NCBI RefSeq assembly: GCF_000148385.1
Contig: NC_014537.1
Coordinates: 1,121,836 to 1,153,835 of the forward strand
Length of the DNA: 32,000 nucleotides
Source of the DNA: Vulcanisaeta distributa DSM 14429
Lineage (GTDB): Archaea > Thermoproteota > Thermoprotei > Thermoproteales > Thermocladiaceae
Direction of reading: 5' to 3'
The first letter of the stretch is position 1; each line of letters starts with the position of its first letter. Both the position numbers and the translations under genes were made by a program. This document shows, piece after piece, positions 1-28,865 of this stretch. Under the pieces are notes generated by a model, which saw only the letters and a list, made by a program, of their open reading frames with translations, had not been told where the DNA came from and made no database searches.

Positions 1-2319
1 GCCAGGTTTAGGCTTGATAAGGATGGATTAAGCCGGGTCAATAATGAGTTGATTAGATTAGGCTTGGCGCCAATTGAGGGTGACCTGAGGGATGTCTCGA
101 TTAGTTATGGTTCGTATTACACCGCCTATGAGGGCGAGCCAACGATTTACGTGATCCTCCCAGGCATTGCTAAGGTTTCATCCTCAGTGAGTATAACTAG
201 GGCATATCAGGTATCGCCTAGGTTACATAGGATATTGGTTTTTGGTAAGGAGCCTGAGGAGGTCATTAGGGCTAAGGAGGAGGTTAGCAAGGCAATTAGC
301 ATTGTTAATGCCTTTCGTGAGGATTTAGCGACAGAAATTGTTCGGGCTGCACTTGGTTCGCAAGTAACACTTTACCCATTATCAAGCGCCTGGGTTGGTA
401 TTGTGGAGAATCCCCTTGATGTTAGGATTGGAATCATAGTGAGCACTGACGGCGACCCCAACCATCTCACCAAGTTATTGAGTAAGGTCATTAATGAGGG
501 TGCAATTACCATAGACGGCCAGGAGAGGTTCATCGACTCTCTACTTGTTATTATAATGTCAAGGACATTACTTACGAGCGACATCATGAAGAGTGTTGTA
601 GAGTCAATTAGTAAATTACCCTGGAAGCTGGTACTTGGCCCTGCGACTGATTTCGTGTACTTCTCAGTATTTGGTTCTGATAAGATCGATGAGCTTAGGT
701 CAATAGTGATTGGTTCTAGGCTTGAGAGGTTGGATAGGGTGCCGAGGGAGTACTCGGTATTTCTCGAGAGGCTTAATGACTATAGGGATGAGGTACTCGC
801 GTTCAGGGATAGGGTTAGGCAGAGGGCTCTTCAGTATACGATGGCAATTAGGCGTGGTGCTAAGGAGTCGAAGGATGCCGTGATTAGGAGGATTGTTGAG
901 GCTTGGGTTAAGGGTGAAGGCCTTGAGGATCAACCTGAGGTCTTTAGGGATGAGAGTGGTAAGGCCAGGGTTAGTGCTGTTGAGTTGAGTTTCATAGATT
1001 ACCTCAGGTCATTGGGTAAGCAGAGCTTCACTGAGAAGGAGCTTGAGTACTTGATAAGGAGGTTATACCCAACGCACCTGTGGAGAGAGTTTAAGGAGGT
1101 TGATTTGATAAAGTTGCTTAGTCTCAGGGGTTTGCTCCTACCCGTTAATAATAACCTAACCGAGTACGCGCCATACACGCCGGAGCTCGTGCCCAAGGTA
1201 CTCACAATACTTAATGAGTACATGAATAGGCTTAATGAGACCCTCCATAAGCCATTATCAATAAGTATTGATGAGTTGAAGGTGAGTATTGAGGTTCAAC
1301 CTGGGATTAATGTGCAGGGTAATGATTGCGAGAAGGCGTTCACGCTATTAAAGGCAGTACCTGAAACATCAAGCGAATTTCTAAGGAGGTATTCATTATT
1401 CATGTTATGCATCGACAAGCTGGAGGACGAGGTTGATCAGAAGCTTGAGGAATTGAATAACGAATTATCATCACTATCATCTTCATTAAACAACACAATT
1501 AAAGACCTGTTAAATAAGTTGAGTAGCGCCAGGAGAAGTATTGACGAGTACCTGCCAGGACTTTCCAGCGAGCTTGATTCAAGAGTTAATGGCCTAATTG
1601 AAAGGGTTAAGTCGTACATCCTGAGACTTAACGGGCTTGAGCTGGAGAATATTAAGGAAAGCCTTCCAACAATACTTGAGACAATCAATTCTGAGGTTAA
1701 TGGAGCAATTGAATTAATGAATACACTAAAGGGTATTGAGGATAGGGTAAAGGAGTACGTGGAACTAACGAGCATTTTAAAGAACGCCTCAGTCATAATC
1801 GGTAAGGACATCGCTGGAATGAGTATTAACGACTTTGTAGACGACTTATTACCATTGATAAGGCATGGCTCACCGAATGTGCTAAGCAATTACTTAAATG
1901 AGTTGGTGCACGTTATTGAGTTAAGGCGTAAAGAGCTTAGCGATGTGTTAGGTAATGTTAATGCTTTAATTGATAAGTATGTTAAGATAACGGCATGGCT
2001 TAAGAAGAGGATTAATAATAAGTTGGTAAATAAGTTGCTGAGTGGTGCCATCCCTGAGATTCCAAATCCATCACCAACGTTTGATAATGCTAAGTACATA
2101 AGCGATGCCATTAGGAATGTAGATGAGGTCATTAACGGGATAAGTAGGGAACTTAATATACCCAGGGACTTACTCATCAAGATTGCATCGCTAGGTCCCA
2201 ATGTGGGTATTGACGAGGGGTCCCTGGCAAAGGAGCTCAATATGGATATTTCCACGGTAAATAAGTACCTGGAAAGTATGTGGAAGGCAGGTTTGATTGA
2301 TAGGAGGTATGTGACATGA
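1..2319 (+). CDS. Large protein of unknown function (at least 756 aa, probably 5'-truncated by the window edge). It has a long alpha-helical/coiled-coil central region and a C-terminal winged-helix DNA-binding-like domain.
   Basis: The listed ORF (49..2319) starts at a TTG, but the same frame is open back to base 1 (gcc agg ttt agg ...). The first 48 nt look coding rather than AT-rich promoter, so the gene probably starts upstream of the window. The heptad-like helical stretch runs 'DKLEDEVDQKLEELNNELSSLSSSLNNTIKDLLNKL...RVKEYVELTSILK'. The C-terminus 'LAKELNMDISTVNKYLESMWKAGLIDRRY' resembles MarR/TrmB-type wHTH recognition helices. No Walker A motif is present in the visible part. Confidence 0.7.
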   Translation, partial: ARFRLDKDGLSRVNNELIRLGLAPIEGDLRDVSISYGSYYTAYEGEPTIYVILPGIAKVSSSVSITRAYQVSPRLHRILVFGKEPEEVIRAKEEVSKAISIVNAFREDLATEIVRAALGSQVTLYPLSSAWVGIVENPLDVRIGIIVSTDGDPNHLTKLLSKVINEGAITIDGQERFIDSLLVIIMSRTLLTSDIMKSVVESISKLPWKLVLGPATDFVYFSVFGSDKIDELRSIVIGSRLERLDRVPREYSVFLERLNDYRDEVLAFRDRVRQRALQYTMAIRRGAKESKDAVIRRIVEAWVKGEGLEDQPEVFRDESGKARVSAVELSFIDYLRSLGKQSFTEKELEYLIRRLYPTHLWREFKEVDLIKLLSLRGLLLPVNNNLTEYAPYTPELVPKVLTILNEYMNRLNETLHKPLSISIDELKVSIEVQPGINVQGNDCEKAFTLLKAVPETSSEFLRRYSLFMLCIDKLEDEVDQKLEELNNELSSLSSSLNNTIKDLLNKLSSARRSIDEYLPGLSSELDSRVNGLIERVKSYILRLNGLELENIKESLPTILETINSEVNGAIELMNTLKGIEDRVKEYVELTSILKNASVIIGKDIAGMSINDFVDDLLPLIRHGSPNVLSNYLNELVHVIELRRKELSDVLGNVNALIDKYVKITAWLKKRINNKLVNKLLSGAIPEIPNPSPTFDNAKYISDAIRNVDEVINGISRELNIPRDLLIKIASLGPNVGIDEGSLAKELNMDISTVNKYLESMWKAGLIDRRYVT

Positions 2320-2325
2320 GGTGAT
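2318..2325 (+). promoter_or_regulatory. Shine-Dalgarno site for the internal operon gene, overlapping the upstream stop codon.
   Basis: 'GAGGTGAT' is complementary to the archaeal 16S 3' end (AUCACCUCC). The ATG follows at 2330. Confidence 0.6.
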
Positions 2326-2329
2326 AATA

Positions 2330-2983
2330 ATGAAGGTGGCAGTTCTTGGATTGGGGAGGAATTGCGTGGATAATGAGGTATTTAGTTGCGGTGATGTCAG
2401 TGATGCATCAGTGATTATTGACTTAAATGGTAGTCTTAAGTCATTGGATGTTAAAGCCCAGTTAATAGTGTTAACAAGCCCTGAGTCCCTTGTGACTATT
2501 AAGAGGTATGTAGTTGATGAGATCGCCATCGGTAATTCCGTATTAAGGACTTTAATAGGTCTTGGAGAGCTTGAGGGTGATGCCGTCATTAAGGGTGTTA
2601 GGGGTGAGGTATTTGGTGTTTCACTGGGTGGTAAGGTCATACTCTTCGCAAGGCCGTTGCTCATCTACTTAGTCCATGACCCTGAACCACTCATCAACGA
2701 GTTGAAGCTCCTGCTTAGTAATGCCCCACCAGGTATCAGCGTTGAGGATGTGGTTAGGGAGTTAACGTCCTTAATAATATCTGAGAGGCGTAGTAAGAAG
2801 GTTTCACGTACATTGGCCTACCTGGAGGAGTTTCTCCAGGATAACGATGTTAGTAAGTTACCACCCTACATACTCGACTTACTAACCAGTGTTGGCGCTG
2901 TGCAGGGTGATAGGGTTAATAGGGAATTGATTGAGAGAATAATTAATGAGGTGAAGGCTAGGATATACCCGAGGAGGAGTTAG
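2330..2983 (+). CDS. Hypothetical protein (217 aa), the middle gene of the NurA-containing operon.
   Basis: The ORF is 2321..2983. I prefer the ATG at 2330 because a strong SD 'GAGGTGAT' (2318-2325) overlaps the upstream stop codon (TGA 2317-2319). I recognise no family motif. Confidence 0.65.
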   Translation: MKVAVLGLGRNCVDNEVFSCGDVSDASVIIDLNGSLKSLDVKAQLIVLTSPESLVTIKRYVVDEIAIGNSVLRTLIGLGELEGDAVIKGVRGEVFGVSLGGKVILFARPLLIYLVHDPEPLINELKLLLSNAPPGISVEDVVRELTSLIISERRSKKVSRTLAYLEEFLQDNDVSKLPPYILDLLTSVGAVQGDRVNRELIERIINEVKARIYPRRS

Positions 2984-2984
2984 G

Positions 2985-3908
2985 ATGTTTAATGACGTAA
3001 TAGTAAACATGCTTGAGCTCATCGAGACCAGGATTGCCCAGATGAGAGATAGGGCCCTAGAACTACTTAACAGTGCCAGTAATTTCATGAGCTACGTAAT
3101 CGAGGTTGCGCCTAGCCGTGAGTTCACGAGGTTCATAGCCGTTGACTCCGGGTTCACTGAGATAACGTATCTAGGCTTTAGAATAGCCGTCATTAACGTA
3201 GCCTTACTAATGAATGTTGATGGTAAAGGACACGTAATAAATAGGTTCGATGCGCTACTTGGAATTTCCAGTGAGGAATTAGAGAGAATAGCCCTGGACA
3301 TGGAGGCCCAATACGCACTGGAATACTCAAGGTCCTTCCCCGTAGATATTGTGTTACTTGATGGGGCATTGATGGGGAGGAACTACGTGAATAGGTTCAG
3401 CACTCCACTGCTTGCCCATGTTAAGGATGTCAAGGGTGATAGGTATTCGCAGGGGATAGCTGATGATGAGTTTAGGAATTACGTCAATAGGGCGTTGCAG
3501 ATAATGGAGGAGCCATTAGTGATGCATATGATTATGGAGACCTACAGAGCAAGGAATAGGTCAATTAATGCCCTGGTTACTAAGCCCTACGTTGTTGGTA
3601 GGGTTGGTGATAAGGAGGTTTATGGATTCTACGTTCAATACCTACCAGAGACCTTGCCGATATATACCGAGTACGTTGGTGATCCAGGCGTGATTAGGCA
3701 GGTAGTATCACGTATAGCTCCATTATCCACGATGCCGAGACTCGGGTACCCAGCCCCATTATACATCGTCGATAGGATTGCCAAGGTGAATGCGGACTTT
3801 AAGGGGATGGTCAGGTTAATAATGGAGAAGTTAGGTGGCGAGGTTTTAAGTGAGTTGAGGGGTATGTACCTAAAGATAGGGCTTAATGAGTACGTGAAAA
3901 GTAAGTAG
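2985..3908 (+). CDS. nurA: NurA-family 5'-3' nuclease homolog (307 aa).
   Basis: Motif-by-motif resemblance to Sulfolobus NurA as I recall it: 'FIAVDSGF' vs 'FVAIDGGS' (catalytic Asp), 'ERIALDMEAQYALEYS' vs 'ERISLLMEALELSLA' (catalytic Glu region), 'DIVLLDGAL' vs 'DYILMDGSL' (second Asp), and C-terminal 'GYPAPLYIVDRIAKV' vs 'GYPFPLLKAHMDV'. SD 'GAGGAGGAG' lies at 2971-2979. The ATG is 1 nt after the upstream TAG. Confidence 0.75.
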   Translation: MFNDVIVNMLELIETRIAQMRDRALELLNSASNFMSYVIEVAPSREFTRFIAVDSGFTEITYLGFRIAVINVALLMNVDGKGHVINRFDALLGISSEELERIALDMEAQYALEYSRSFPVDIVLLDGALMGRNYVNRFSTPLLAHVKDVKGDRYSQGIADDEFRNYVNRALQIMEEPLVMHMIMETYRARNRSINALVTKPYVVGRVGDKEVYGFYVQYLPETLPIYTEYVGDPGVIRQVVSRIAPLSTMPRLGYPAPLYIVDRIAKVNADFKGMVRLIMEKLGGEVLSELRGMYLKIGLNEYVKSK

Positions 3909-4087: not shown

Positions 4088-4453
4088 ATGCTGATATACA
4101 TTGTGCGTGCAATGAACGAGCTTAGGAGGTGCCTTGCCCTTTATGATGAGTTTGAGTGCTCGGCATACCTCAATAGGACCTATGGTACCTGGATGGTTAG
4201 GCTCAGTAATGATGAGGCTAATGTGATCCTTAATGAGGCATCCAAGTCATGCACGCAGGTTGAGAGTAGCTTCCTTTATTGTGTGTTCTGTGTTGGTTCG
4301 CAGTGTAGTATGGAGCCTTCAGAATCCGTGAGTAGGTACATTATTGATTGTCTCGATAAACTCAATATTAGGCAGGGTGTAAAGGATGCTTTGAGGAGTA
4401 TTCTTAATAAGGCCGTGGAGATTAATTCTGAAGTGGCGTGTACCGGTGAGTGA
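4088..4453 (+). CDS. Small Cys-rich hypothetical protein (about 113-129 aa depending on start).
   Basis: The ORF is 4064..4453 with a GTG at 4064; in-frame ATGs lie at 4088 and 4112. An A/T-rich box 'aagcaaataaag' (about 4053-4064) sits about 25 nt upstream of the ATG at 4088, which fits a leaderless start. The protein has nine Cys, including 'YCVFCVGSQC'. I recognise no family. Confidence 0.5.
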   Translation: MLIYIVRAMNELRRCLALYDEFECSAYLNRTYGTWMVRLSNDEANVILNEASKSCTQVESSFLYCVFCVGSQCSMEPSESVSRYIIDCLDKLNIRQGVKDALRSILNKAVEINSEVACTGE

Positions 4454-4456
4454 TTT

Positions 4457-5515
4457 ATGCTTAGGCAGGTGATCTTTGGAGGCGTCTTCGATAAATTACC
4501 GCAGGGCATTTACAGGAGGTGGTTTGTTTATCAAATGAGGGTTTCCCAGGCGTTAATAATTCTCTCCATGGCATCGTTCATAATCGGTTCGGCTGTTTTG
4601 GCACTGAGGTATGGACGACTACATGGGGATTTGATGCTCGGTGGCTTAATACTATTCTACGTCGGCATAATGTTCAGCCAACACCCTGGCTTCACGAGGG
4701 TTATGCCAAGCCCATTCGCGTCAGTGTTGATTGGCTTATTAACCATTGCGTGGTTCGTGACCTACACATTAGGTGTGTGGTTTAGCTGGATTATGGGTAT
4801 TATCTTAGCACTATACTATGCATTGCTATTGATTATCAGGGGTGGTCTTGGCAGAAAACCACTTTACTGGCCCAACACATTCTTCCTGAGTGGCTTGATT
4901 AGTCTCATGATCGCCTTATACCTAGGTGGTTTTAGGCTAGTGGTATTCCCTGTGGCATCCATTGTTAGTCTCATTAGGCGTGTTGAGAGTAGGCAAAGGC
5001 CCATTTACGCCATTGATATTCCATACGCAGTCCTACTCCCAGTAATGACGTACTACCTTAATAACTCAATAGACCTAGCGGTTTTCTCATTATTCACGTT
5101 AATAGCCATTGGGGTACCCAGGAGGTTTGGGCCTGCATTCAAGACCACATATTCGAGGACGTACCCCATTGGTTCATCACTCGGTAGGGCTATGTTAATA
5201 ATCACCGCTATCCTGGCATTAATTGGGGTTCCACTGGGCGACGTCATTCACGCGCTTTTCATAGGCTTCATAGCCGTGATAATGTCCTCACTCTGCATAC
5301 CAATGCTCAACCCAGGGATACTCTGGTTCTCAATGAGGCGCTATGGCATTGTGGGCTTCGAAATACCAACGCTCCTCTTCATATCAGCCATACTAAGGGC
5401 GGTTTATTACCTAGTCGGTCCCCAATTAATCGCTGCGTCCTTAATCCTCGTATTAATAGCGTATATCGAGGTTGCCGCGTCTTACCTGAGTGGTGAGAGG
5501 GTTAAGGTGCTCTAA
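4457..5515 (+). CDS. Polytopic integral membrane protein (352 aa, roughly 9-10 predicted TM helices), function unknown.
   Basis: Hydrophobic segments occur throughout, for example 'ALIILSMASFIIGSAVLAL', 'GIILALYYALLLII', 'FFLSGLISLMIALYLGGF' and 'IHALFIGFIAVIMSSLCIPML'. The ATG is 3 nt after the stop of the upstream Cys-rich ORF and is preceded by 'GGTGAGTGA'. Confidence 0.7.
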   Translation: MLRQVIFGGVFDKLPQGIYRRWFVYQMRVSQALIILSMASFIIGSAVLALRYGRLHGDLMLGGLILFYVGIMFSQHPGFTRVMPSPFASVLIGLLTIAWFVTYTLGVWFSWIMGIILALYYALLLIIRGGLGRKPLYWPNTFFLSGLISLMIALYLGGFRLVVFPVASIVSLIRRVESRQRPIYAIDIPYAVLLPVMTYYLNNSIDLAVFSLFTLIAIGVPRRFGPAFKTTYSRTYPIGSSLGRAMLIITAILALIGVPLGDVIHALFIGFIAVIMSSLCIPMLNPGILWFSMRRYGIVGFEIPTLLFISAILRAVYYLVGPQLIAASLILVLIAYIEVAASYLSGERVKVL

Positions 5516-6110
5516 CGTAGTTAAGTAGCGCATTCGCTATTAACCTTGCCACCCTAATTGGCTCAGGCCTCTTACCCTCCCTAACAAACTTCCTGATTAT
5601 CGTCCTAGCAGTCCTATAATCAATTCCTGCAAACCTCACATAAATCCTCAAACCACCAGGTAACAACATCTCCCTAGGCTTACCCAACTTCTCATAAAGC
5701 CTCACCCTCACGTCCGAATCACTTGGAAACAACTTCCTCAGCGCATTTACGACATCACCCTCAGGCTCCTCGAAGGTCAGGCACATTATTGGCAAGCCCA
5801 GCTCATTCGACAGCCTCTCCAGGTCGATTATGTTGTACCAGGATATTATACACCCATCAATCATTATCAACTGAATGTCATTCCTACTAAACGACCTGTA
5901 CAGACTTATTACAGCATCCGTAGCATCTAAACCACCAACGGTAGTTCTACCCAACGACACACCATCAATAACACCATCACTCCTCATGACAACACCAACC
6001 AGTATTGAATACCTAAGATCCAGCCTAAAGCTCTCGGCAATACCAAGGGCCCTTACGCCAGGCTTACTAACAAGCGCGTCAATACCCATACTATCCCAAT
6101 CACGTAGCAC
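5502..6110 (-). CDS. DUF99/UPF0215 family protein (archaeal endonuclease-V-like fold).
   Basis: 'RALGIAESF...ILVGVVMRSDGVIDGV...TVGGLDATDAV...IQLIMIDGCIISWYNIIDL' matches the conserved UPF0215 pattern (GIDDSF-like N-terminal motif, 'DG' core). The ORF starts with a GTG at 6110. The ATG at 6089 ('MGIDALV...') is a plausible true start, given the TATA-like 'ttataa' around 6124-6133. Confidence 0.65.
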   Translation of the reverse strand: MLRDWDSMGIDALVSKPGVRALGIAESFRLDLRYSILVGVVMRSDGVIDGVSLGRTTVGGLDATDAVISLYRSFSRNDIQLIMIDGCIISWYNIIDLERLSNELGLPIMCLTFEEPEGDVVNALRKLFPSDSDVRVRLYEKLGKPREMLLPGGLRIYVRFAGIDYRTARTIIRKFVREGKRPEPIRVARLIANALLNYVRAP

Positions 6111-6210: not shown

Positions 6211-7875
6211 TTAAGTAATTTGAATAACTTTACCGTATTTACATGCATATGTCTGCGGGCTCCCATAGTAATTGGTTGCATTAAGTATAAAGCCGAATGT
6301 GGGTAAACCATAGACCTGAGACGCATCAACTACCGAGACGTATAGATTTGTACCAACACCAATATTGAAGAGCTCAACCCACGTGCTCTGTGTTGTTGAT
6401 GAAGTTGATGGAGGCAACAGCATACCCGCAATGCTAAATATGGCACTACCCATGCTTAATAAGATTTCGAGAGGCTCAGAATTAGGTATTAAAGCGGCTA
6501 ATCCAAGGGCTATGCCCGTGAGCCCAGTGCCGAGCTGTGGCGCACTTAAGCCGTATGCAGTGTTAATACCGCCGAGCTGTATTTGGTATTGCCCACTGAC
6601 TATGTTTACGGGCCCATTACATTCATAGAGATATTCAGAGCCTGTGGTCGTGTATTCAAAACTGGCATAATCAATCACGGACGACGCATTTAAGGCGGAG
6701 TAACCAAAGTACCTCTCGGCTAATGGTACGGCACCGTAATACAGCAAACTTATTGTGCCGTTACCATAGTCAAGAGCGTAACCATAAGCGTCGTATTCAG
6801 GTACGTAGAGCACTTCGGAAACGGTAGTTGAGCCCAAGTACTGTGTGTATCCAGTCGTTGGATCAACGTACCAAGCATCATACTGAACAATGGCCCAAGT
6901 GGCATCTTCATAGTAGTAATATATGGAGCCTGGCACATTCACCTGTGAACCAAGCACGTACTCTGCGGTATTACCAACCCAATTCTCCTGGGTACTATAG
7001 GATGTACCTATATCTCCGTAGCCCACGGCCATGGCATTCCAATTGATTGTGCCCGAGAAGTAAATAGCCAATGTGATCCCGAGCCCCTTATCATAACTTA
7101 ACACGCCATTACTCCACGTGATCCAAGCCAGTGGTAGTGAGCCATTTATGCCCAGGCATGTTGATTCCGGTATAAATTCGTAGGGTAGCGGCATGTAAAT
7201 ACTCGGCTGAGGACCACTCACGGAACAATTATAAAGCACGTAACCGCTATACGATCCAAAGACCTGAGGATCAGTCATGTTGGGTATATGGTTCATAGCT
7301 ATGATCCTAAATGGCTTAATTGAGCTTACGTTTATGTATACCGTGGCCAATATGTACATGGGCGTAATGCCAGCCGCTAGGCTAGGCCTTTGTGCTGCCA
7401 GGGCCCAGCCTACATTGTATGGTACTACCATGGGTATTATCCAGGACTCATTATCGTGGATGTACGTCACAAACACTAGTAATGAAGTGTCATAACCATT
7501 CACCGGCATTTTAGTCTCGAGCCACTTATTCACGGCATATGCCCAGTCAGTATTGTTAAATGGTACGGTGACCGAACTACCGTAGGCATACATCACCGGC
7601 ATTATGCCGTTTGGTAGGTTCACGTAAACACTGATGAAGGCATTTACGGGTGTTATTGAGGATCCGTTAATGAGGTACGTCCTAATCACCACGCCGGGCA
7701 GCATGCCCCTTATTGGTGGTGAGCTGTAATACGTTATCGTGCCCGTACTAACCCTAATCACCTGCGCAGGGCTTGGCTGAAGCGTTACTACATCCAGTGT
7801 AGAAAGTAGTATTGAGACTGTAGTGATTATTAGTATGGCCATTGTTATGAATGCTAACCTATGCCTCGTGATCAT
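6211..7875 (-). CDS. Predicted secreted or membrane-anchored surface (glyco)protein, Tyr/Gly/Asn/Ser-rich (554 aa). Paralog of the downstream-adjacent gene.
   Basis: An N-terminal signal-anchor 'LAFITMAILIITTVSILLSTL' is present. There are about ten N-X-S/T sequons. A C-proximal pair of hydrophobic segments reads 'GLTGIALGLAALIP...GSAIFSIAGMLLPP', followed by an S/T-rich linker and a beta-like tail. The gene has its own AT-rich promoter, with 'atatatat' about 22-28 nt upstream of the ATG at 7875. Confidence 0.7.
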   Translation of the reverse strand: MITRHRLAFITMAILIITTVSILLSTLDVVTLQPSPAQVIRVSTGTITYYSSPPIRGMLPGVVIRTYLINGSSITPVNAFISVYVNLPNGIMPVMYAYGSSVTVPFNNTDWAYAVNKWLETKMPVNGYDTSLLVFVTYIHDNESWIIPMVVPYNVGWALAAQRPSLAAGITPMYILATVYINVSSIKPFRIIAMNHIPNMTDPQVFGSYSGYVLYNCSVSGPQPSIYMPLPYEFIPESTCLGINGSLPLAWITWSNGVLSYDKGLGITLAIYFSGTINWNAMAVGYGDIGTSYSTQENWVGNTAEYVLGSQVNVPGSIYYYYEDATWAIVQYDAWYVDPTTGYTQYLGSTTVSEVLYVPEYDAYGYALDYGNGTISLLYYGAVPLAERYFGYSALNASSVIDYASFEYTTTGSEYLYECNGPVNIVSGQYQIQLGGINTAYGLSAPQLGTGLTGIALGLAALIPNSEPLEILLSMGSAIFSIAGMLLPPSTSSTTQSTWVELFNIGVGTNLYVSVVDASQVYGLPTFGFILNATNYYGSPQTYACKYGKVIQIT

Positions 7876-7975: not shown

Positions 7976-9769
7976 CTACTTATTGCAGTAGATGCCTCCT
8001 AGATAGGGCTGTGTCGAATTTATGATTATGCCCACGGGGAATGTCTCACTACTCACTGAGCCATAGCTATACTTTATGGGTGTTCCGTAAAACGCCACGT
8101 AGTATGCTGAGCCATAATTAGCGACCAGGTTAATTACGGTATTGAAGTAGAAGAATGACGAGGAGCCCGGTGGCGGAACCATGAGACCAGCTATGCCAAG
8201 GGCCACGGATGTTGCCAGACCAGCCAGGAATTGGTTACCGCCAAATATCGTGGCTATGCTTGAACCAACACTTGGATAGGCAAGGATTAAACCGGCTATG
8301 AATAAACCTGCCTCTGCGGCTACTCCATATGGGTTGGGATTGAATGTTGATGCCGCCACACTCAGTGAGAAGTAGCAGCCTGATGACGTACATGTTATAC
8401 TGGGGCTTGATGTACATAAACCACTGTAGTGGTAATTGCCGTTACTATCCCTTGAAATGAAGACGTAGTCATAAACATAGTTTGGGCTAATTAAACCGAA
8501 TCTAGGCGCTACCTGGCTCATCATGAAGTTCATAATGCCATTACCGAGGTCAATGCCCGGCCATACCCACAGCACATTATTACGTATGGCGCCTGGTAGT
8601 AGGTTAATAACAGCCGTGGCGTTGGCATACTCATTAAGTGGATAGGTATAGCCGTTCTGATCGACGTAATAGCCCTCGAACTGTATTAAGGCCAGGGTAC
8701 CATTAATGCCTAAGTAAAGGAAGCCCGGTCCCCTATTGACGTAGTAATAAAGGTTCGGGTATGAGTACGATAACGAGGAGCTTGACGAAAATGCGAAGTA
8801 CACATAGACATTATCGACATAGTTATAGCCACTATAGCCTCCATAAATAGGCAGGTTACTTGAGAATTGCAGCGTTGGGCCAACAACCTCAAGTCCAGAA
8901 CCTGGAACATTGACAGCCCCATAGAGACCGGAGCCTTTTTGGGCATAACCACCTATACTCAGCACTATCCCGCCACCAATATTGTTGCTCCATGCATCCT
9001 TGCCCCAGGCAATCCACAGTATGGGTATTGAACCATTAAATCCAGCACAGGCACGTGGTTCCCAATAAACAATCCCTGTACCGGCGTAGATTGATGGTGG
9101 AGCGGCATTCAGGACATTACTACTTCCGAGGCAATTGTACGGTCCTACGAAGCCGTAGGGATCCACGGAGGGGCTCGCCATCAGTGATGAGGCATTTATT
9201 GCATTATGATTATAAATTATTCTTACCGGCGCTACCCTAGAGAAGTCTACGGTTAAGCTTATGACTATTGATGCGTTATTTATTATCCAGGTTGGGTTAT
9301 AGGGGATCGCCACCGCCACGGTCCTTGTCTCGTTCGTGGATTTGTCGAAGTACGTGATAAATGCAAGTATGGATGGCCACACAGCATCCGGCGGGTTTCT
9401 ATTGGAGGTCATGATTCTTATCGTCTCCTTAGCTATGTTAATTATTGGTTTTATAATTAAACTTACGTTTACCGAGCCGAATCCGTAGTAATAACCAACC
9501 GTGTAGATATGCCCTTCGCCAAGTGCAAATAGGCTGATGGTTAATGGGACTGGGTTATTATTTAGGTAGCCGTGAATAATGAGTATTGGCTTCCTTATGC
9601 CTGTTACATTATAATAATTGACCTGGTATGTATCAGTACTGATTATTATGATAGGTTTGGGGTTTACTGATTGGGCAAATGTATTGATTGCTATGAGCAT
9701 GGTCACGGTAATTATGGAAATAGCCAGTGCGATCATAGCTATGCCCTGTCTATGAATACCTATGGTCAT
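7976..9769 (-). CDS. Predicted secreted or membrane-anchored surface (glyco)protein (about 597 aa). Paralog of 6211..7875.
   Basis: It has the same architecture as its neighbour. The signal-anchor is 'IAMIALAISIITVTMLIAINTF'. Shared blocks include 'PSIY', 'C.G.NGS.P..WI.W', 'VNVPGS' and 'YVD..GYT', and the C-proximal segment is 'ALGIAGLMVPPPGSSS'. The ORF begins with a TTG at 9772 and the adjacent ATG at 9769 is preferred. Confidence 0.7.
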   Translation of the reverse strand: MTIGIHRQGIAMIALAISIITVTMLIAINTFAQSVNPKPIIIISTDTYQVNYYNVTGIRKPILIIHGYLNNNPVPLTISLFALGEGHIYTVGYYYGFGSVNVSLIIKPIINIAKETIRIMTSNRNPPDAVWPSILAFITYFDKSTNETRTVAVAIPYNPTWIINNASIVISLTVDFSRVAPVRIIYNHNAINASSLMASPSVDPYGFVGPYNCLGSSNVLNAAPPSIYAGTGIVYWEPRACAGFNGSIPILWIAWGKDAWSNNIGGGIVLSIGGYAQKGSGLYGAVNVPGSGLEVVGPTLQFSSNLPIYGGYSGYNYVDNVYVYFAFSSSSSLSYSYPNLYYYVNRGPGFLYLGINGTLALIQFEGYYVDQNGYTYPLNEYANATAVINLLPGAIRNNVLWVWPGIDLGNGIMNFMMSQVAPRFGLISPNYVYDYVFISRDSNGNYHYSGLCTSSPSITCTSSGCYFSLSVAASTFNPNPYGVAAEAGLFIAGLILAYPSVGSSIATIFGGNQFLAGLATSVALGIAGLMVPPPGSSSFFYFNTVINLVANYGSAYYVAFYGTPIKYSYGSVSSETFPVGIIINSTQPYLGGIYCNK

Positions 9770-9876
9770 CAATATAATTCCTTAATAAGGGGCCTTTTAC
9801 TTTACTTTTTTACCTTTACTTCGGTTATTCATAAAATTTGAGTCGAATTAAATTAAATAGAATTTAAGTAACTACG

Positions 9877-10799: not shown

Positions 10800-13295
10800 T
10801 TAATCGGTTCCCTGAATAATCCTCCTCTCATTACCCTCCTTAATAAGCCTGATAACACTATACTTAACATTAGTCTCCTCAGCCGCCTTCACAATATCAT
10901 TAACCAAATCCTCCGACTGTGTCGTGATTATTACCTGCCCAACCAAGCCCTCGCTAACGAACCTGGTTAATAATGCCGCAAAGGCCCTCCTAATGTTCAC
11001 GTCAACGTAAGGTATTGGTTCATCCATTAGCAGGAAGTCGACATTATGATTAGTGGCCCTATAAACACTCAATAGGAATGAGAGGGTTATTGTCAGCCTC
11101 TGCCCATCACTCAACCTGGATATTGTAACCTTCCTACCGCCAGGTCTGATGGCGTAGAGCGTATATTCACTGACCACCCCAACAACGCCCCTATCCCTAA
11201 CCGTAACCTCAATGCCCGCCCCCTCAAGGTCATTGTATGGGTATAGCAGCTTGAAAATTGCGCCAACGTTATCCCTAACAATCTTAATCATCTCATCCCT
11301 AACCCTTGCCTGAACCTCCCTAATACCAGCCCTAATCCTAACCAGCCTGTTATAGAAGTCCTCAAGGAAGTCAAGTCTCCTCCTGAGTACTGATGGGTCC
11401 TCCTTATCGAAGCCAAGGCTCGACAGTGCAAGCTCAAGCCTACTTAACTCCGCTGAGTCATCACCTAATTTGGCCCTAACCTGGGTTAACCTCTCATCGA
11501 GATACCTAATCTGGTCTTCAATGCTTGTTACGGTCTTCGTGTCAATACCGAGATTACTGAGTTGCTGCCTAAGCTCCTCCTCCTGCTGCTTCAGGGAATT
11601 AAGCTCCCTATACTTTCTTAGGTATGAAATTGCCCTATCAATATCGTCAATTTCAGCCCTAAACTCATCAACAAACCTCGTAAGCGCCTGAATCCTCCTA
11701 TCAATATCCCTAATGGACCTCTCAATTGTCTCAAGCTTTGAGACCACAGCCTCAAACCTGGACCTGACATCCCGCGCACGTTCAACGGTGGCCTCATAAT
11801 CATTAACGATAGGTAACAGGGTCTCCATGTTTGTCAATACCTTCTCCAGCTCATTCAGTTTATTCCTTATTTCCTCAATTTCGTCGTTACGACCTTTCGA
11901 TAACTCCTCAATCCTCCTCTTAATGTTCTCATAATCCTCCTCACTTAACGGCCTATTGCAGACAGGGCACCTCTCCTCATGATTACTCAGTATGTACTGT
12001 AAGACATTTAGTAACGATATCCTAAAGCTCTCCTCGGAACTAAGCTTCTCAAGCCTACTCCTCAACTCCTCAATGTCCTTCCTAACCTTAATCGGCTCGC
12101 CATACTTACTAACCAATGCTCTATACTCCCTAACCCTGGACTCCTCCTGTGAAAGCCTCGCTTCAAGCTCCCTAAGTGATGCCTTCAATGACTCGGACTG
12201 GATCTCGAGATCATTACGAACATTACTAAGGTACTCCCTATCCTCAACCAGTTTATCCTTAAGTTTGGCGAGCTCCTCAAAGGCCTTGTATATATTCTCG
12301 GCGGCCTCGGCTAGGTTATCGTTAGTTATCACTAATTTACTAACCTCATCAGCCTCCTTAACAAGTGCGTACTCCTCAAGCTTCTCAATTAACGAATCCC
12401 TAAGTCTCTCAAGCCTAAGCCTAATGCTCGTCTCATTAACCTCCTTAACGCCCACCCTCTCAAGCTCCTGCTCAAGGTTCTCCCTCCTAATCCTAATAGC
12501 GATATAATTACTATATACCTCCTCAACACCCTTAAAGTTCTTCAGTATTTCCTCCCTCCTTTTTAGTAAGTCATTGTATGTATTGCTGAGTTCCTCCTCC
12601 TCCTTCCTCAACTTATCAATTTCCTCCCTCAACTCCCTAACCTTTTCCCGCGCCTTCTCAATGGAGCCGTACTTAACTATTATTTCAGGGAGCTCCTTAA
12701 CACTGGCGAGTCTCTGCCTAAGTCTATTAATCAATTCCTCAAGCTGAGACATGGGTAATGACTTATTTAAATTATCGAGAATCTCAAGCCCAAATAACTT
12801 ATCAATGAATATGCTCCTCTTCGTGATACTACCATAGACTAACGCCTCAAGGGTCCTATGTGTGACTAGCACGAACCTCTCAAAGTCATCATCATCAACG
12901 CCCAGGAACTCTATGATCTTGGGATTGACATCATCACCCTTATACCTAGTGCCGTTAATCATGGCGATGGGGCTTTCCCTCGCCGTTTCACCAGACCTCT
13001 TAAGCTCCCTAACTATCTCAACACCATTCGTAAGTACAAGCTTAACGAGTGAAGAATTCGAGTCCTCATTTATTAAGTCAGCCAGCTTTGAAACCCTCTC
13101 CTTAACCTCCAATTGAGTTCCATAGAGTGCATACTCAATTGCCTGAACAATACTTGTTTTGCCGGAGCCAACGGGTCCATGGATTATGTTAATACCGTCA
13201 TTAAAGACAACCCTATGCTCGCCCCTAAACCCCCTGAAGTCCCTAATGGTTAATTCACTAATCCTAACCTTCACCCTCACCCACCTCAACGCCAA
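10800..13295 (-). CDS. Rad50/SMC-like coiled-coil ABC ATPase. By position it is arcadin-4 of the crenactin (arcade) cluster.
   Basis: Motifs present: Walker A 'GPVGSGKTS', a very long coiled coil, a central 'CPVC' hook-like motif, the ABC signature 'LSDGQRLTITLSF' and Walker B 'FLLMDEPIPYVD'. It is the last gene of the arcadin-1/crenactin/arcadin-2/-3 co-directional series. The start is uncertain: TTG at 13295, or GTG at 13280 or 13274. The GTG at 13274 would give 'MKVRISELTIRDF', a typical Rad50-like N-terminus. Confidence 0.75.
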   Translation of the reverse strand: MALRWVRVKVRISELTIRDFRGFRGEHRVVFNDGINIIHGPVGSGKTSIVQAIEYALYGTQLEVKERVSKLADLINEDSNSSLVKLVLTNGVEIVRELKRSGETARESPIAMINGTRYKGDDVNPKIIEFLGVDDDDFERFVLVTHRTLEALVYGSITKRSIFIDKLFGLEILDNLNKSLPMSQLEELINRLRQRLASVKELPEIIVKYGSIEKAREKVRELREEIDKLRKEEEELSNTYNDLLKRREEILKNFKGVEEVYSNYIAIRIRRENLEQELERVGVKEVNETSIRLRLERLRDSLIEKLEEYALVKEADEVSKLVITNDNLAEAAENIYKAFEELAKLKDKLVEDREYLSNVRNDLEIQSESLKASLRELEARLSQEESRVREYRALVSKYGEPIKVRKDIEELRSRLEKLSSEESFRISLLNVLQYILSNHEERCPVCNRPLSEEDYENIKRRIEELSKGRNDEIEEIRNKLNELEKVLTNMETLLPIVNDYEATVERARDVRSRFEAVVSKLETIERSIRDIDRRIQALTRFVDEFRAEIDDIDRAISYLRKYRELNSLKQQEEELRQQLSNLGIDTKTVTSIEDQIRYLDERLTQVRAKLGDDSAELSRLELALSSLGFDKEDPSVLRRRLDFLEDFYNRLVRIRAGIREVQARVRDEMIKIVRDNVGAIFKLLYPYNDLEGAGIEVTVRDRGVVGVVSEYTLYAIRPGGRKVTISRLSDGQRLTITLSFLLSVYRATNHNVDFLLMDEPIPYVDVNIRRAFAALLTRFVSEGLVGQVIITTQSEDLVNDIVKAAEETNVKYSVIRLIKEGNERRIIQGTD

Positions 13296-13449
13296 CCTTA
13301 CTCAACTCCTCATTAATCGCCTTAATAATGCCCCTTCTACCACCCTCCTTATAAGCCATGTAAAGCTTAATGGCTAATTCAGCGTCCTGCCCAAGCCTAT
13401 CCCTCAGGAACTTAATTATTAATTCATCAAGCTCACCCATTACCACCAC
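13264..13449 (-). CDS. Small protein (58-61 aa). By position it is arcadin-3.
   Basis: A short ORF is wedged between the arcadin-2-like and arcadin-4-like genes and overlaps both. The ATG at 13440 overlaps the upstream TGA (13433-13435) as 'ATGGGTGA'. The sequence is helical: 'ELDELIIKFLRDRLGQDAELAIKLYMAYKEGG'. The call rests on the gene order published for Pyrobaculum, not on sequence recall. Confidence 0.5.
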   Translation of the reverse strand: MVVMGELDELIIKFLRDRLGQDAELAIKLYMAYKEGGRRGIIKAINEELSKVGVEVGEGEG

Positions 13450-14119
13450 CCCTCCTTCTTAATACCTCAATCCACGGATTATTACTAAGGAAGTCAGGTA
13501 ACTCATTGTTAATTGTCGAGCCCCCCTGCGCCGTAGTATTTGTTAACCCTGTGGCTTGTAACCCAATTCTCTCGAGCTTATTAACACGCTCAATTAACTC
13601 ATTAATTATCTGCTCAATCCTCATCACCCTATCCCTCAACTCATTAATGTCCTTGGTTAGTGGTTGAATGTTAATGCCCGATAGGGAATTCCTCACATCA
13701 TTAATTGCCTTCTCAAGGTCATCAATCCTCTTCTTAATGCTATCATCAATACCCTGTTGTAGCTGTATTGGTATGCTTGGTATTAACTCCTCCACAGCCC
13801 TTTCGGGATCAGTTGATGACAAGTCATAAATGTAAACACCAACCCTATTGCTTCTGAATAATTTACCGTTTATCAAACCCCTGGCGCTCTGTGGAAATGC
13901 TATGTACGCCTTATTGTAGTTAAATCTATTCCTCATGACATTACTAAGCTCATCAATTATGTAGGACTCCGTTGGGAACTCCTCTGTGGATATCCTGAGG
14001 TAAACCGTGTTATTACCCTCCATGAGCACGATCTCCTTCTCGCTCAGTTTATCCACTATCCTAAAACCCCTCTGTAGCAACCACTCCTCAATAAGCTTCC
14101 TCGCAATTTCAATACTCAT
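13433..14119 (-). CDS. Coiled-coil protein (228 aa). By position it is arcadin-2, the crenactin regulator.
   Basis: It lies immediately downstream of crenactin. The protein has an N-terminal globular part, then a central coiled coil 'IKKRIDDLEKAINDVRN...LRDRVMRIEQIINELIERVNKLE', then a flexible C-terminal tail 'NNELPDFLSNNPWIEVLRRRGGGNG'. The assignment rests on synteny with the published arcade cluster. Confidence 0.6.
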   Translation of the reverse strand: MSIEIARKLIEEWLLQRGFRIVDKLSEKEIVLMEGNNTVYLRISTEEFPTESYIIDELSNVMRNRFNYNKAYIAFPQSARGLINGKLFRSNRVGVYIYDLSSTDPERAVEELIPSIPIQLQQGIDDSIKKRIDDLEKAINDVRNSLSGINIQPLTKDINELRDRVMRIEQIINELIERVNKLERIGLQATGLTNTTAQGGSTINNELPDFLSNNPWIEVLRRRGGGNG

Positions 14120-14190
14120 TACACCTACACATTACTAACTAACAACTCGCTTTTTAACCTAATTGAATCATAAGACTAGAATGAAAGGAC

Positions 14191-15507
<1,317 letters not shown>

Positions 15508-15840
15508 TCACCAGGTCGCCTTTATTGCGATGAACTCATTATTAAACATTATTACGTACGTATCATCAAATGACTTAACCCTGGGCTTCAAATAATCCCT
15601 TAATTTATCTGGTAATGAATTAATTGACCCATTAATGCAATTAAGCACTTGATCAAGGATCTCCTTTAAATGCTCGCTTGTGGTCTCTACGTAATACATT
15701 GCTTGATACTTAACTCCATTATCTATGGCTAAGAACTTAAGATTAAGGCTACTTAGTATGCATGATATGAATTTGCGTCCCTCCTTAATAACGTCATCCT
15801 CATCCTTCACCTCACCAACCTTACACTCCTGACAACTCAC
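15508..15840 (-). CDS. Small protein (110 aa). By position it is arcadin-1.
   Basis: It is the first gene of the cluster and ends 6 nt before the crenactin ATG. The start is a GTG at 15840, about 21 nt downstream of the TATA-like 'tttataa' (15863-15869). The assignment is by synteny only. Confidence 0.5.
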   Translation of the reverse strand: MSCQECKVGEVKDEDDVIKEGRKFISCILSSLNLKFLAIDNGVKYQAMYYVETTSEHLKEILDQVLNCINGSINSLPDKLRDYLKPRVKSFDDTYVIMFNNEFIAIKATW

Positions 15841-15860
15841 GTAAGTTTATTAGCAATAAG

Positions 15861-15871
15861 GTTTATAAGGA
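15861..15871. promoter_or_regulatory. Near-palindromic TATA element in the 60-bp divergent region between the arcade cluster and the cyclophilin-like gene.
   Basis: The element is 'ggTTTATAAgg'. It is about 21 nt from the arcadin-1 GTG (15840, minus strand) and 30-42 nt from the plus-strand starts (15901/15913). A second box 'gaTTATAAgg' lies at 15891-15900. Confidence 0.4.
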
Positions 15872-15900
15872 GATTGCGCCTCTTGTGACGAGATTATAAG

Positions 15901-16272
15901 GTGCATAGTATTATGGAGAGTGAGTTAATCCTTGAGGTTAAGGATCTTGGAAACATAGTGATTAAGTTGGAGCCAGCTCTGTCACCACTGACCTACGCCA
16001 GATTAGGTAAGTCATTACCAATCAGGGCGAATGCAATTAAATATAGCCAAGTCATATTGATACCCCTGGATTTAGGCCTAGTGAGTGAGGGTAAAAGAAC
16101 TAGTTTAAAGCCGTATGAGGTTGGTTACTGGGTTAAGAAGAGAAGCCTAGTAATCGCCCTAGGTAATGTTGATCTTGGTGAGCAGGTGAATGTGTTAGGT
16201 TACGTAATTAACGGTGCCGAACTTCTTGGTAAATTGAATGGTGGTTATTCCATAAGGATCTCGATTAGGTAA
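15901..16272 (+). CDS. Cyclophilin-like superfamily protein (TM1367-like).
   Basis: 'YEVGYWVKKRSLVIALG...VNVLGYVINGAELLGKLNGGYSIRI' parallels the TM1367 pattern 'GDVGYWPPGKALCLFFG...[23 protein letters not shown]'. The start is either the GTG at 15901 or the ATG at 15913 ('MESELILEV'). Confidence 0.6.
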   Translation: MHSIMESELILEVKDLGNIVIKLEPALSPLTYARLGKSLPIRANAIKYSQVILIPLDLGLVSEGKRTSLKPYEVGYWVKKRSLVIALGNVDLGEQVNVLGYVINGAELLGKLNGGYSIRISIR

Positions 16273-16325
16273 CTAGGATTAAGCTTTTAAAGGGTTAGGG
16301 AAGTACCGAATACGGCGAAAGAAGT

Positions 16326-16613
16326 ATGAGCACACCACAGCAGGAAACCACAATACTAGTGGGTAAAAAACCAACTACAAGCTATGTGATAGCTACGGTA
16401 ATGAGTTTCAATGCGGGGGCTAAGAAGGTAATACTGAAGGCTAGAGGCGGTGCGATAGCCAGGGCAGTATCAACGGCGGTAATGATAAGGGATAGGTTCC
16501 TACCAAACCAGGTAAGGATAGCCGACATAAAGCTACTAACCGACAAGGTAACTGGGCAGGGAGGCAAAGAGAGATCCGTAGCAGCCATCGAAATAGTGCT
16601 TGAGAGGGTATAA
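16326..16613 (+). CDS. albA: Chromatin/RNA-binding protein Alba (Sso10b family).
   Basis: 'ILVGKKPTTSYVIATVMSFNAGAKKVILKARGGAIARAVSTAVMIRDRF' is the classic Alba core. The protein is 95 aa. A TATA 'ttttaaa' lies at 16285-16291. Confidence 0.9.
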   Translation: MSTPQQETTILVGKKPTTSYVIATVMSFNAGAKKVILKARGGAIARAVSTAVMIRDRFLPNQVRIADIKLLTDKVTGQGGKERSVAAIEIVLERV

Positions 16614-16694
16614 GCGAAATAAGTACCATGAGCTGCTTCAAAAATCAAGTAAAATAATTACACAATCAATTCAATTATTTCATTTTCACCTTAC

Positions 16695-17249
16695 TTAGTC
16701 ATTTTTAGTCATTTCAAGGAGATAACTCCTAATCTCCTCAAGTAATGTAACGAGAACGAATAATGCACTCCTCCTGTTGGTAGCTATTAATGGCATGACC
16801 TTAACCTCATAGGGAACCTTCAATATACTCTTAATGGTAAGTATGTCCACGGCAGTGGGTACATCCTGCTTATTCGCAGCAATCACATGAGGCGTTGATG
16901 GAAAGTTTTCCCTGAAGAAATTATACATTCCCAACGCCTCCTTAACCTTCTCCTCGCTTGAACTATCAACGATGAATAGGTAGCCATGCATACCCCTGGC
17001 AATTATCTTCCACATGAAGCTAAACCTCTCCTGACCAGGTACGCCAAATAGATGCACGACTAGGTCCTCCCTAACCTTCATTCGACCATAATCAAAAGCT
17101 ACCGTAGTACTTTTCTTACCATCATTTGAACTCTTCGTTATTGGAACATCAGTCTCGATAGGCAACACCTCACTTAGTGTTTTAACGAATGTGGTTTTAC
17201 CAGCACCATACGGGCCAGCAATCACGATCTTTATTGTCTTTATTGGCAT
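16695..17249 (-). CDS. Small Ras-superfamily GTPase of the MglA-like / COG2229 type.
   Basis: G1 is 'GPYGAGKTT'. G3 is 'FGVPGQERF', which lacks the canonical Asp, as in the MglA 'TVPGQ' motif. G4 is 'NKQD'. The ORF starts with a GTG at 17258, but the ATG at 17249 is preceded by SD 'GAGGTG' overlapping the upstream stop, so I prefer it. Confidence 0.8.
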   Translation of the reverse strand: MPIKTIKIVIAGPYGAGKTTFVKTLSEVLPIETDVPITKSSNDGKKSTTVAFDYGRMKVREDLVVHLFGVPGQERFSFMWKIIARGMHGYLFIVDSSSEEKVKEALGMYNFFRENFPSTPHVIAANKQDVPTAVDILTIKSILKVPYEVKVMPLIATNRRSALFVLVTLLEEIRSYLLEMTKND

Positions 17250-17259
17250 AATGCCCACC

Positions 17260-17757: not shown

Positions 17758-17896
17758 AATCCTTTCTATTTATTATAATTTTTAAATCTTTCGATTTTTC
17801 TTATTACAGACAAAGGTAATCGTATTTTCAACTCCATTAGCAACACCCACTATATGCATAATAAGTTTTTTAAATGCATGGTGCGGGTTAATACGG

Positions 17897-18241: not shown

Positions 18242-18245
18242 TTTA

Positions 18246-28798: not shown

Positions 28799-28865
28799 TC
28801 AATATTTGCTCTAACCCCTAATTATTAAATGTTTTAATGCTGCTGTTTAGATCTCGGTGTAAGGC

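Follow-up and report, generated by a model that had tools for sequence, protein, structure and literature searches.

A conserved operon of Thermoproteaceae encodes a divergent NurA-family nuclease, an orphan protein and a predicted ORC/Cdc6-type AAA+ ATPase

NurA nucleases have been studied almost only as partners of HerA. We asked which ATPase, if any, accompanies the NurA gene found near the start of a 32,000-nucleotide (nt) stretch of Vulcanisaeta distributa DSM 14429 (NC_014537.1, positions 1,121,836–1,153,835; hereafter the window), where a preliminary description made from the sequence had proposed a NurA module with a giant coiled-coil protein instead of HerA, Mre11 and Rad50. In the open reading frame (ORF) list and its translation, the window begins with three consecutive forward-strand frames, referred to here as the large, middle and NurA genes and together as the trio. 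We find that a predicted AAA+ ATPase of 1,141 residues, a 217-residue orphan and a NurA-family nuclease are encoded in this order at the start of the window and at most orthologous loci. The three proteins may form one ATP-regulated DNA-processing complex with a role in repair, recombination or chromosome maintenance, a reading to which we give about an even chance.

The NurA gene (2985–3908, forward strand) encodes a 307-residue protein identical to a V. distributa entry annotated by NCBI as 'DNA double-strand break repair nuclease NurA'. Its translation holds the four strings from which the family had been recognized earlier, 'FIAVDSGF', 'ERIALDMEAQYALE', 'DIVLLDGAL' and 'GYPAPL'. Against the Pfam NurA model (PF09376) it scores 20.5 bits over the full model length, with a gathering threshold of 21 (E = 3.6e-4); the orthologues in Pyrobaculum islandicum and Caldivirga, together with several Vulcanisaeta homologues, carry a precomputed Pfam NurA match (E ≤ 1e-5 in P. 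islandicum and Caldivirga). An AlphaFold2 (AF2) model built on 14 homologues (predicted local distance difference test score (pLDDT) 85.7, predicted template modelling score 0.80) returned NurA structures as its top Foldseek matches in the PDB, namely Sulfolobus solfataricus 2ygk (E = 4.4e-13), the Thermococcus kodakarensis HerA–NurA complex 9x1n and Pyrococcus furiosus 3tal, followed in the ranking by endonuclease V and Argonaute PIWI.

A profile built from 19 orthologues across all genera aligned with S. solfataricus NurA (SsoNurA) at E = 6.2e-8 with the catalytic motifs in register, HMMER pairing VDSG with IDGG, E with E, LLDG with LMDG and GYPlPL..aD with GYPFPLLKAH. The corresponding codons are D54 (3144–3146), E107 (3303–3305), D126 (3360–3362) and D263 (3771–3773). 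D54, E107 and D126 are invariant in the 19 orthologues. At position 263, Vulcanisaeta and Caldivirga have Asp, whereas Pyrobaculum and Thermoproteus have the His of canonical NurA. The Asp–Glu–Asp residues, whose conservation the preliminary description had left to a profile alignment, are thus retained, and its assignment to NurA stands. From alignment and model, we regard the 307-residue protein as a divergent, compact member of the NurA family that is probably catalytically active.

The large gene is cut by the window edge. Its frame, already open at base 1, closes with the TGA at 2317–2319 and comprises 772 codons in the window, the longest ORF from an internal start giving the 756 residues that had been quoted as a lower bound. 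A public contig with the same genes that reaches 7 kb upstream of the window (L001) completes it: the gene starts 1,107 nt upstream of the window, at L001:5910, and encodes 1,141 residues, so that window base 1 (L001:7017) is codon 370 and positions 1–2319 encode the C-terminal residues 370–1,141. The start codon is preceded by an AT-rich gap of 130 nt, in which the TATA-like TTTTCTTAATTAAT, ~30 nt from the ATG, marks a putative promoter of a short-leader or leaderless first gene. The genes beyond this gap are unrelated and encode a secreted or membrane protein, a minimal nucleotidyltransferase, hydantoinase B, a PD-(D/E)XK protein and a major facilitator superfamily transporter. The operon begins with the large gene, and ~180 nt of non-coding sequence follow the NurA stop codon at its other end.

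The gaps between the three genes in V. distributa are 10 nt (large/middle) and 1 nt (middle/NurA). A Shine–Dalgarno-like GAGGTGAT (2318–2325, forward strand) overlaps the TGA of the large gene, with 4 nt separating it from the middle-gene ATG at 2330; a second, GAGGAGGAG (2971–2979, forward strand), ends 5 nt before the NurA ATG at 2985, which itself follows the upstream TAG (2981–2983) by 1 nt. Both junctions are as first described. By themselves, such strings are weak evidence for coupling: the window has two copies of GAGGTGAT where 0.93 are expected and seven of GAGGAGGAG, mostly within purine-rich coding sequence, and neither stands out by count alone. The argument for coupling comes from their position together with the fact that both junctions keep an overlap or abutment at orthologous loci. 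The large and middle genes typically overlap by 11 nt (Caldivirga, Thermocladium, Pyrobaculum and Thermoproteus), and the middle/NurA junction ranges from a 14-nt overlap to a 7-nt gap. On this comparison, we read the three genes as a tightly translationally coupled operon.

To follow the trio across species, we scanned one genome per species and assigned genes by iterated hidden Markov models (HMMs) for the three proteins, finding 39 loci, 35 of them with enough downstream sequence to be informative. The named organisms belong to Thermoproteaceae genera; the others are metagenome-assembled genomes (MAGs) labelled Thermoproteales, Thermoproteaceae, Thermoprotei or Thermoproteota. The large, middle and NurA genes are contiguous and in that order in 31 of the 35 informative loci, which represent each of the five named genera (Vulcanisaeta, Caldivirga, Thermocladium, Pyrobaculum and Thermoproteus) as well as MAGs, and the synteny that the preliminary description had proposed to look for is therefore present. 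The remaining four loci have the large gene alone (L018 and L020, from uncultured Thermoproteaceae/Thermoproteota lineages), the large and middle genes without an adjoining NurA gene (L039), or the middle–NurA pair on the opposite strand at a distance of 4 kb (L027). In five Vulcanisaeta and Thermocladium JCM drafts (L007–L010 and L040), the trio genes are split by several frameshifts; they are intact in other assemblies of close relatives. Errors in sequencing or assembly, and not pseudogenes, seem to account for the frameshifts.

The Pyrobaculum and Thermoproteus loci share 11–17 of their 14–19 flanking genes, so the cassette has kept its chromosomal position there. It sits among genes for metabolism and housekeeping; the gene tables of L001, L042 and L043 list no restriction–modification, CRISPR or toxin–antitoxin genes near it, and no relatives of the large protein were found in viral contigs. 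Between Pyrobaculum and Thermoproteus, the trio proteins are 41–52% identical and the products of flanking genes 42–73%; by this measure, the trio diverges at the faster end of the range of its neighbours and would not count as an outlier. Judging from these comparisons, the best explanation is that the trio is an ancestral, vertically inherited and non-mobile feature of Thermoproteaceae.

The part of the large protein upstream of the window holds its ATPase. A Walker A motif (GQYGWGKSE) and a Walker B motif (LLLLIDEADE) are encoded 1.1 kb upstream of the window in the same polypeptide. The earlier statement that the visible part has no Walker A motif is true for the window but does not extend to the whole protein, and the suggestion that an ATPase domain might lie further upstream was borne out, as the large protein begins with a P-loop ATPase. 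Its homologues form a family of ~950–1,250 residues with 28–34% identity between genera. Pfam AAA_16 is matched by 15 of 21 members and BrxC_BrxD by 7 of 21 (best E = 3.4e-8), the latter match covering ~75 N-terminal residues, at model positions ~15–92 of 414; the V. distributa protein itself matches BrxC_BrxD at E = 0.1. A PDB sequence-profile search was dominated by coiled-coil matches. Structure was compared through the AF2 model (pLDDT 86.9) of an orthologue equal in length and 85% identical; its top Foldseek matches in the PDB are the archaeal Orc1/Cdc6 structures 2qby_A and 2v1u_A, followed by other AAA+ proteins.

Invariant in 21–26 homologues are G59, G61 and K62 of Walker A, D114 and E115 of Walker B, the sensor-1 residue T178, R200 and R270 of the lid. 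On the model, these residues fall in the P-loop, at the end of strand 3, at the end of strand 4 (T178), just before strand 5 (R200) and in the lid (R270). Because the invariant catalytic residues occupy the positions expected in an AAA+ core, the comparison argues for an active, oligomerizing AAA+ ATPase with an intact site that includes an arginine finger. Profiles and model together indicate that the ATPase is an AAA+ protein of the ORC/Cdc6 type and not a HerA/FtsK-like translocase.

The ORC/Cdc6-type AAA+ domain (residues ~30–290) and, in the model, a first winged helix-turn-helix (wHTH; residues ~322–373) are encoded outside the window, upstream on the forward strand. The modules encoded within the window, likewise delimited on the model, begin with an alpha+beta domain of ~230 residues (~376–610; 19–723, forward strand), marked by the motifs DLRDLSIEYGSYYT, ENxLDARLG and FGSDxIDELR and, in the family alignment, by the invariant residues S402, Y408, R511, D548 and W577. 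It is followed by a long connector helix with a wHTH-like module (residues ~618–760) and a small beta-hairpin insert (788–802), together at 745–1299 on the forward strand; the module carries the conserved KELEYLIRRLxPTHLWREF...LRGLL, with E697, E716, L717, P726, W730, D737, R745 and G746 invariant. A helical or coiled-coil bundle (residues ~810–1,049; 1321–2040, forward strand) consists of helices at 827–880, 890–910, 917–969 and 978–1,038, and the protein ends in a wHTH (residues ~1,066–1,141; 2089–2316, forward strand). The terminal wHTH matches HTH_24 at 22.0 bits (cutoff 21.9) and, more weakly, TrmB, MarR and Lrs14-type models. The C terminus of the P. islandicum orthologue (L042:10001-12859, P0052) matches HTH_Cmi2_C (PF24270) at 28.8 bits (cutoff 27); the meaning of the Pfam name 'Cmi2' was not traceable in the searchable literature.

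The preliminary description had taken the large protein to be mostly helical or coiled coil with a wHTH-like end. The end holds, but the helical share was overstated: the bundle helices amount to ~240 of 1,141 residues, about a fifth, of what appears to be a multidomain DNA-binding ATPase. The bundle matches coiled-coil families by composition only, namely apolipoprotein and the coiled coils of LmuB and ZorA. The PADLOC matches to LmuB, ZorA, Leo, Csa3 and SngB were rejected as family assignments, as they cover the coiled coil, the wHTH or the P-loop only. For LmuB of Lamassu, the match (E = 7e-6) spans residues 841–1,116 in the helical bundle and is compositional, and the ATPase of the large protein is AAA+.

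Between the two enzymes, the middle gene (2330–2983, forward strand) encodes a 217-residue, lineage-restricted orphan. An alignment of its orthologues across all genera shows an invariant ERRxxxxSxTL motif (E152, R153 and S159) and an invariant C-terminal Y213, with identity to the V. distributa protein falling to 18–34% outside Vulcanisaeta. The protein and 19 orthologues matched nothing in Pfam, NCBIfam or PADLOC; a profile search of the PDB returned only noise (CtsR, E = 0.013; eS25, E = 0.14), and hhalign found no similarity to Escherichia coli BrxB. An exhaustive HMMER profile search of 1.84 billion representative proteins retrieved only 22 sequences, all of them members of the middle-protein family and none an outside relative. 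The middle protein defines a new protein family. Its orthologues occur wherever the cassette does, and the gene lies directly downstream of the large gene in 32 of the 35 informative loci. At L027, where the pair is split from the large gene, it accompanies NurA; at L039, which has no adjoining NurA gene, it remains beside the large gene. This lends weak support to a bridging function, and we see the protein as a putative adaptor between the ATPase and the nuclease.

Whether the trio takes the place of HerA can be judged from the rest of the genome. For Pyrobaculum and V. distributa, three nurA families have been listed (Bernick et al. 2012, PMC3396285, Table A2). In V. distributa, they comprise a CRISPR-associated nurA-csm6-herA cluster (Vdis_1157/1158), a second nurA/herA pair (Vdis_1272 with Vdis_1306) and a putative recombination orthologue (nurA Vdis_0977 with herA Vdis_0630); unpaired herA genes, including Vdis_0944, and non-adjacent nurA/herA pairs are also listed for this organism (PMC3396285). 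From the CRISPR and locus-tag positions given there, the trio NurA of Pyrobaculum oguniense (at ~185 kb) appears to be none of the listed nurA genes, and its much weaker Pfam score suggests that the V. distributa trio NurA likewise falls outside the three paralogue families. Because canonical HerA–NurA pairs are listed elsewhere in the V. distributa genome, the trio is therefore a further NurA paralogue beside canonical HerA–NurA, which supplements HerA and does not replace it genome-wide. At the trio locus itself, the earlier phrase 'instead of HerA-Mre11-Rad50' is accurate: contig extension revealed none of these genes upstream and an ATPase of the AAA+ ORC/Cdc6 type, the gene tables of L001, L042 and L043 contain no HerA/FtsK or DUF87 match, and neither mre11 nor rad50 lies within 6–10 kb up- or downstream in V. 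distributa, P. islandicum and Caldivirga. Neither a CRISPR array nor herA turned up in the window or in the Pfam-annotated gene tables of the same three loci.

The trio resembles the HerA–NurA complex in its nuclease family (NurA fold, D-E-D-(H/D) site and GYPxPL) and in the coupling of the nuclease gene to a P-loop ATPase gene, from which an ATP-controlled nuclease would be expected. It differs in the ATPase, which is of the ORC/Cdc6 AAA+ type and fused to ~850 residues of predicted DNA-binding and helical modules, whereas HerA is a hexameric HerA/FtsK translocase with a HAS barrel. Further differences are the orphan gene between the ATPase and nuclease genes, the lack of mre11 and rad50, and the nuclease itself, which in the trio family has 249–307 residues against 339–443 in the solved NurA chains and shares 10–14% identity with them in structural alignments. 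The CRISPR-associated nurA-csm6-herA cluster and the other nurA–herA pairs of Thermoproteales are a parallel in the same organisms, as there, too, NurA has been duplicated and recruited to new partners. Those paralogues, in contrast, pair with HerA-family ATPases, one of them beside CRISPR arrays (PMC3396285).

Among other known systems, the large protein is closest in architecture to BrxC (PglY), the AAA+ ATPase of bacteriophage exclusion (BREX), and to the related DUF499 ATPases of BREX-related systems. BrxC is described as an AAA+ domain followed by a wHTH, an alpha+beta domain of ~200 residues, one or more wHTHs and an extended coiled coil. The trio protein would follow this published order (wHTH, alpha+beta, wHTH, helical/coiled coil), is of similar size (1,141 against 1,200–1,300 residues), begins with an ORC/Cdc6-type AAA+ domain with an arginine before strand 5 and belongs to a family with the partial BrxC_BrxD matches given above. 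It differs in a shorter helical region and an extra terminal wHTH. The helix insert after strand 2 that is described for the ORC/Cdc6 clade is not evident in the model, which has a ~50-residue insertion after strand 3. An hhalign comparison of the family alignment with BrxC of E. coli HS gave a probability of 1.3%, at low power because the template was a single sequence. The BREX partners are also missing at the inspected loci, where the trio is accompanied by neither PglZ nor a methyltransferase, BrxA/B or a helicase; the precomputed Pfam tables of L001, L042 and L043 hold no PglZ, no PglX or other methyltransferase and no helicase family. A 2026 survey of BREX and BREX-related systems, read with this question in mind, mentions no NurA or RNase H-fold partner. 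We therefore treat BrxC as the closest architectural analogue of the large protein and not as its family.

Orc1/Cdc6 initiators are the best structural matches, with the AAA+ core, lid and winged helix aligned over ~400 columns (2qby_A and 2v1u_A). The match is modest (Foldseek E ~2e-5, 14–15% identity), and the large protein is three times longer, contains a ~50-residue helical insertion between strands 3 and 4 and is encoded in an operon with a nuclease. Rad50–Mre11/SbcCD, Lamassu LmuB–LmuA and Wadjet follow the same general logic, in which an ATPase that binds DNA and carries helical arms is encoded together with a nuclease and a small accessory subunit; their ATPases are of the ABC/SMC type, not AAA+, and their nucleases belong to other families.

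Initiator-type AAA+ proteins are ATP-dependent DNA-binding switches or loaders rather than pumps. In a complex of the three trio proteins, the large protein would bind DNA and oligomerize on it in an ATP-dependent manner through its wHTH and assembly modules. The ATPase would act as a sensor, loader or switch, as in initiator-type AAA+ proteins and BrxC, and not as a HerA-style pump. The 217-residue orphan would serve as an adaptor between ATPase and nuclease, through which the ATPase could recruit, position or license NurA to nick, cut or resect DNA. The cellular task of such a complex might be the processing of particular DNA ends or structures.

Several points weigh against this proposal. 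The interaction of the three proteins is read from their genes, 'adaptor' is a guess for a protein with no recognizable fold or family, and the partnership is not obligatory, given the lineages with the large gene alone (L018 and L020) or without an adjoining NurA gene (L039). Canonical NurA needs HerA to feed it DNA, and we know of no case in which NurA is driven by an ORC/Cdc6-type AAA+ protein. An immune function would also fit the BrxC-like domain order, the restriction to one lineage, the presence of an orphan subunit and the low identity of the large protein between genera (28–34%). The trio could then be an innate immune system against viruses or plasmids, in which a BrxC-like AAA+ protein senses foreign DNA and activates a NurA effector; variable alpha+beta, wHTH and helical modules would scan the DNA, and the system would amount to a BREX-like sensor without PglZ and methyltransferase, or to an analogue of Lamassu or Wadjet. 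We consider this possible but doubtful. Its case includes the domain order published for BrxC, the BrxC_BrxD matches (partial, in 7 of 21 members, best E = 3.4e-8), the linkage of NurA paralogues of the same organisms to CRISPR loci as nurA-csm6-herA (PMC3396285) and one orthologue that matches the PADLOC model 'NurA, type III coevolved', along with a lineage-restricted orphan subunit, the loss of NurA or of the whole downstream pair in some lineages and trio identities at the low end of the range of the neighbours. Yet the inspected neighbourhoods contain no PglZ, methyltransferase, helicase or other defence gene, and the trio has no component for self/non-self modification. It appears vertically inherited and holds a stable position across Pyrobaculum and Thermoproteus instead of being patchy or island-borne, and relatives of the large protein are absent from viral contigs. 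The hhalign comparison with E. coli BrxC reached a probability of 1.3%, the PADLOC matches of the large protein are limited to the coiled coil, wHTH or P-loop, and the 2026 survey names no NurA or RNase H-fold partner. We regard a cellular role as most likely because the neighbourhoods are stable and of a housekeeping kind, inheritance is vertical, canonical HerA–NurA coexists in the genome and the trio is absent from mobile elements.

A looser association of the three genes is unlikely in our judgement. They might be co-transcribed without forming a dedicated machine, with the large protein a chromatin or transcription ATPase and NurA serving a HerA encoded elsewhere; V. distributa does have unpaired herA genes (including Vdis_0944) and non-adjacent nurA/herA pairs (PMC3396285), some lineages have the large gene without NurA, and the C-terminal wHTH resembles MarR, TrmB and Lrs14-type regulators. 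Against this stand the overlapping or abutting stop–start coupling, which is conserved across five genera and long evolutionary distances and is typical of subunits made in fixed proportion, and the gene order kept in 31 of 35 loci. That the trio could be the tail of a canonical herA-mre11-rad50-nurA operon with its upstream genes outside the window was suggested by the NCBI name 'DNA double-strand break repair nuclease NurA' and by the truncation of the large gene at the window start. On the extended contig, the operon opens with the large gene, and no herA, mre11 or rad50 is among the genes upstream of it; these three are likewise missing in P. islandicum and Caldivirga, and the ATPase is AAA+ and ORC/Cdc6-like, not FtsK/HerA. 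Contig extension and the P. islandicum and Caldivirga gene tables refute this explanation, which we now hold to be extremely improbable.

The preliminary description had singled the locus out as a candidate for an undescribed system, and our searches agree: no description of the trio was found in the literature searched (NurA with BrxC, HerA/Pyrobaculum, and STAND/wHTH/Thermoproteales), the 2026 BREX/BREX-related survey, consulted for this point, does not describe the arrangement, and PADLOC has no model for it. The trio is new in its ATPase class and in the family of its third subunit; ATPase-coupled NurA modules as such are already known. We tentatively suggest, as a conjecture that may well prove wrong, an unrecognized class of ATP-dependent nuclease machine in which an initiator-type (ORC/Cdc6/BrxC-like) AAA+ protein, in place of a HerA translocase, recognizes DNA and controls NurA through a dedicated adaptor, either as a minimal, modification-independent BREX relative directed against Thermoproteaceae viruses or as a lineage-specific surveillance of DNA ends or structures.

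If the proposed complex exists, an AAA+ switch that is not a translocase would be able to drive or gate NurA, which would widen what is known of DNA-end processing in archaea. How BrxC works in BREX is still poorly understood; as a three-gene system with an apparently similar domain layout and a clear nuclease effector, the trio might offer a simpler model of DNA reading by such ATPases. It would also be a family-wide, uncharacterized DNA-acting machine in Thermoproteaceae, a group with unusual chromosome and cell biology: these archaea have crenactin and are generally described as lacking both FtsZ and Cdv division.

Other genes of the window lie close to the trio. After the ~180-nt gap come genes for a 121-residue protein with no Pfam match (4088–4453, forward strand) and a 352-residue polytopic membrane protein (4457–5515, forward strand); as they are conserved beside the trio in Vulcanisaeta only, they are probably not part of the module. 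An Endo_dU gene (PF01949/DUF99; 202 residues, endonuclease V-like fold; 5502–6110, reverse strand) lies 1.6 kb downstream of the NurA gene and also accompanies the trio in the single further Vulcanisaeta locus compared (L006). Next are genes for two paralogous proteins of 554 and 598 residues (6211–7875 and 7976–9772, both reverse strand; 24% identity, E = 1e-15 to 1e-16), which are rich in Tyr, Asn and Gly, have hydrophobic stretches near both ends and gave no Pfam match where tested. A 385-residue protein encoded upstream of the trio (L001:4622-5779) has a similar composition and no BLAST similarity to these paralogues; all three may be lineage-specific surface proteins.

A crenactin/arcadin ('arcade') cluster lies ~7 kb downstream of the trio on both strands (10800–18599). 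It comprises genes for an arcadin-4-like, 831-residue SMC_N coiled-coil protein (10800–13295, reverse), crenactin, a 436-residue actin homologue (14191–15501, reverse), a small Arf/Roc-like GTPase (16695–17258, reverse), Arcadin_1 (17897–18241, forward) and RNA polymerase Rpb6 (18246–18599, reverse), and an Alba protein gene lies within it. The proximity of trio and arcade cluster is probably coincidental, because the gene tables of P. islandicum and Caldivirga show no actin or arcadin family near the trio. A scan of 28.7–32 kb for direct repeats revealed no CRISPR-like array, and the window contains no tandem repeats, Rfam families or tRNAs.

The end of the window (26867–32000) is ordinary housekeeping sequence. 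By eye, translations there read as an arginyl-tRNA synthetase-like protein of 643 residues (26867–28798, reverse strand) and an RNA polymerase subunit H-like protein of 90 residues (28895–29167, forward strand). From ~29.2 kb to the end of the window, no other forward-strand ORF of at least 50 residues is listed, and this interval is probably occupied by one long ORF, rpoB, that runs off the window end.

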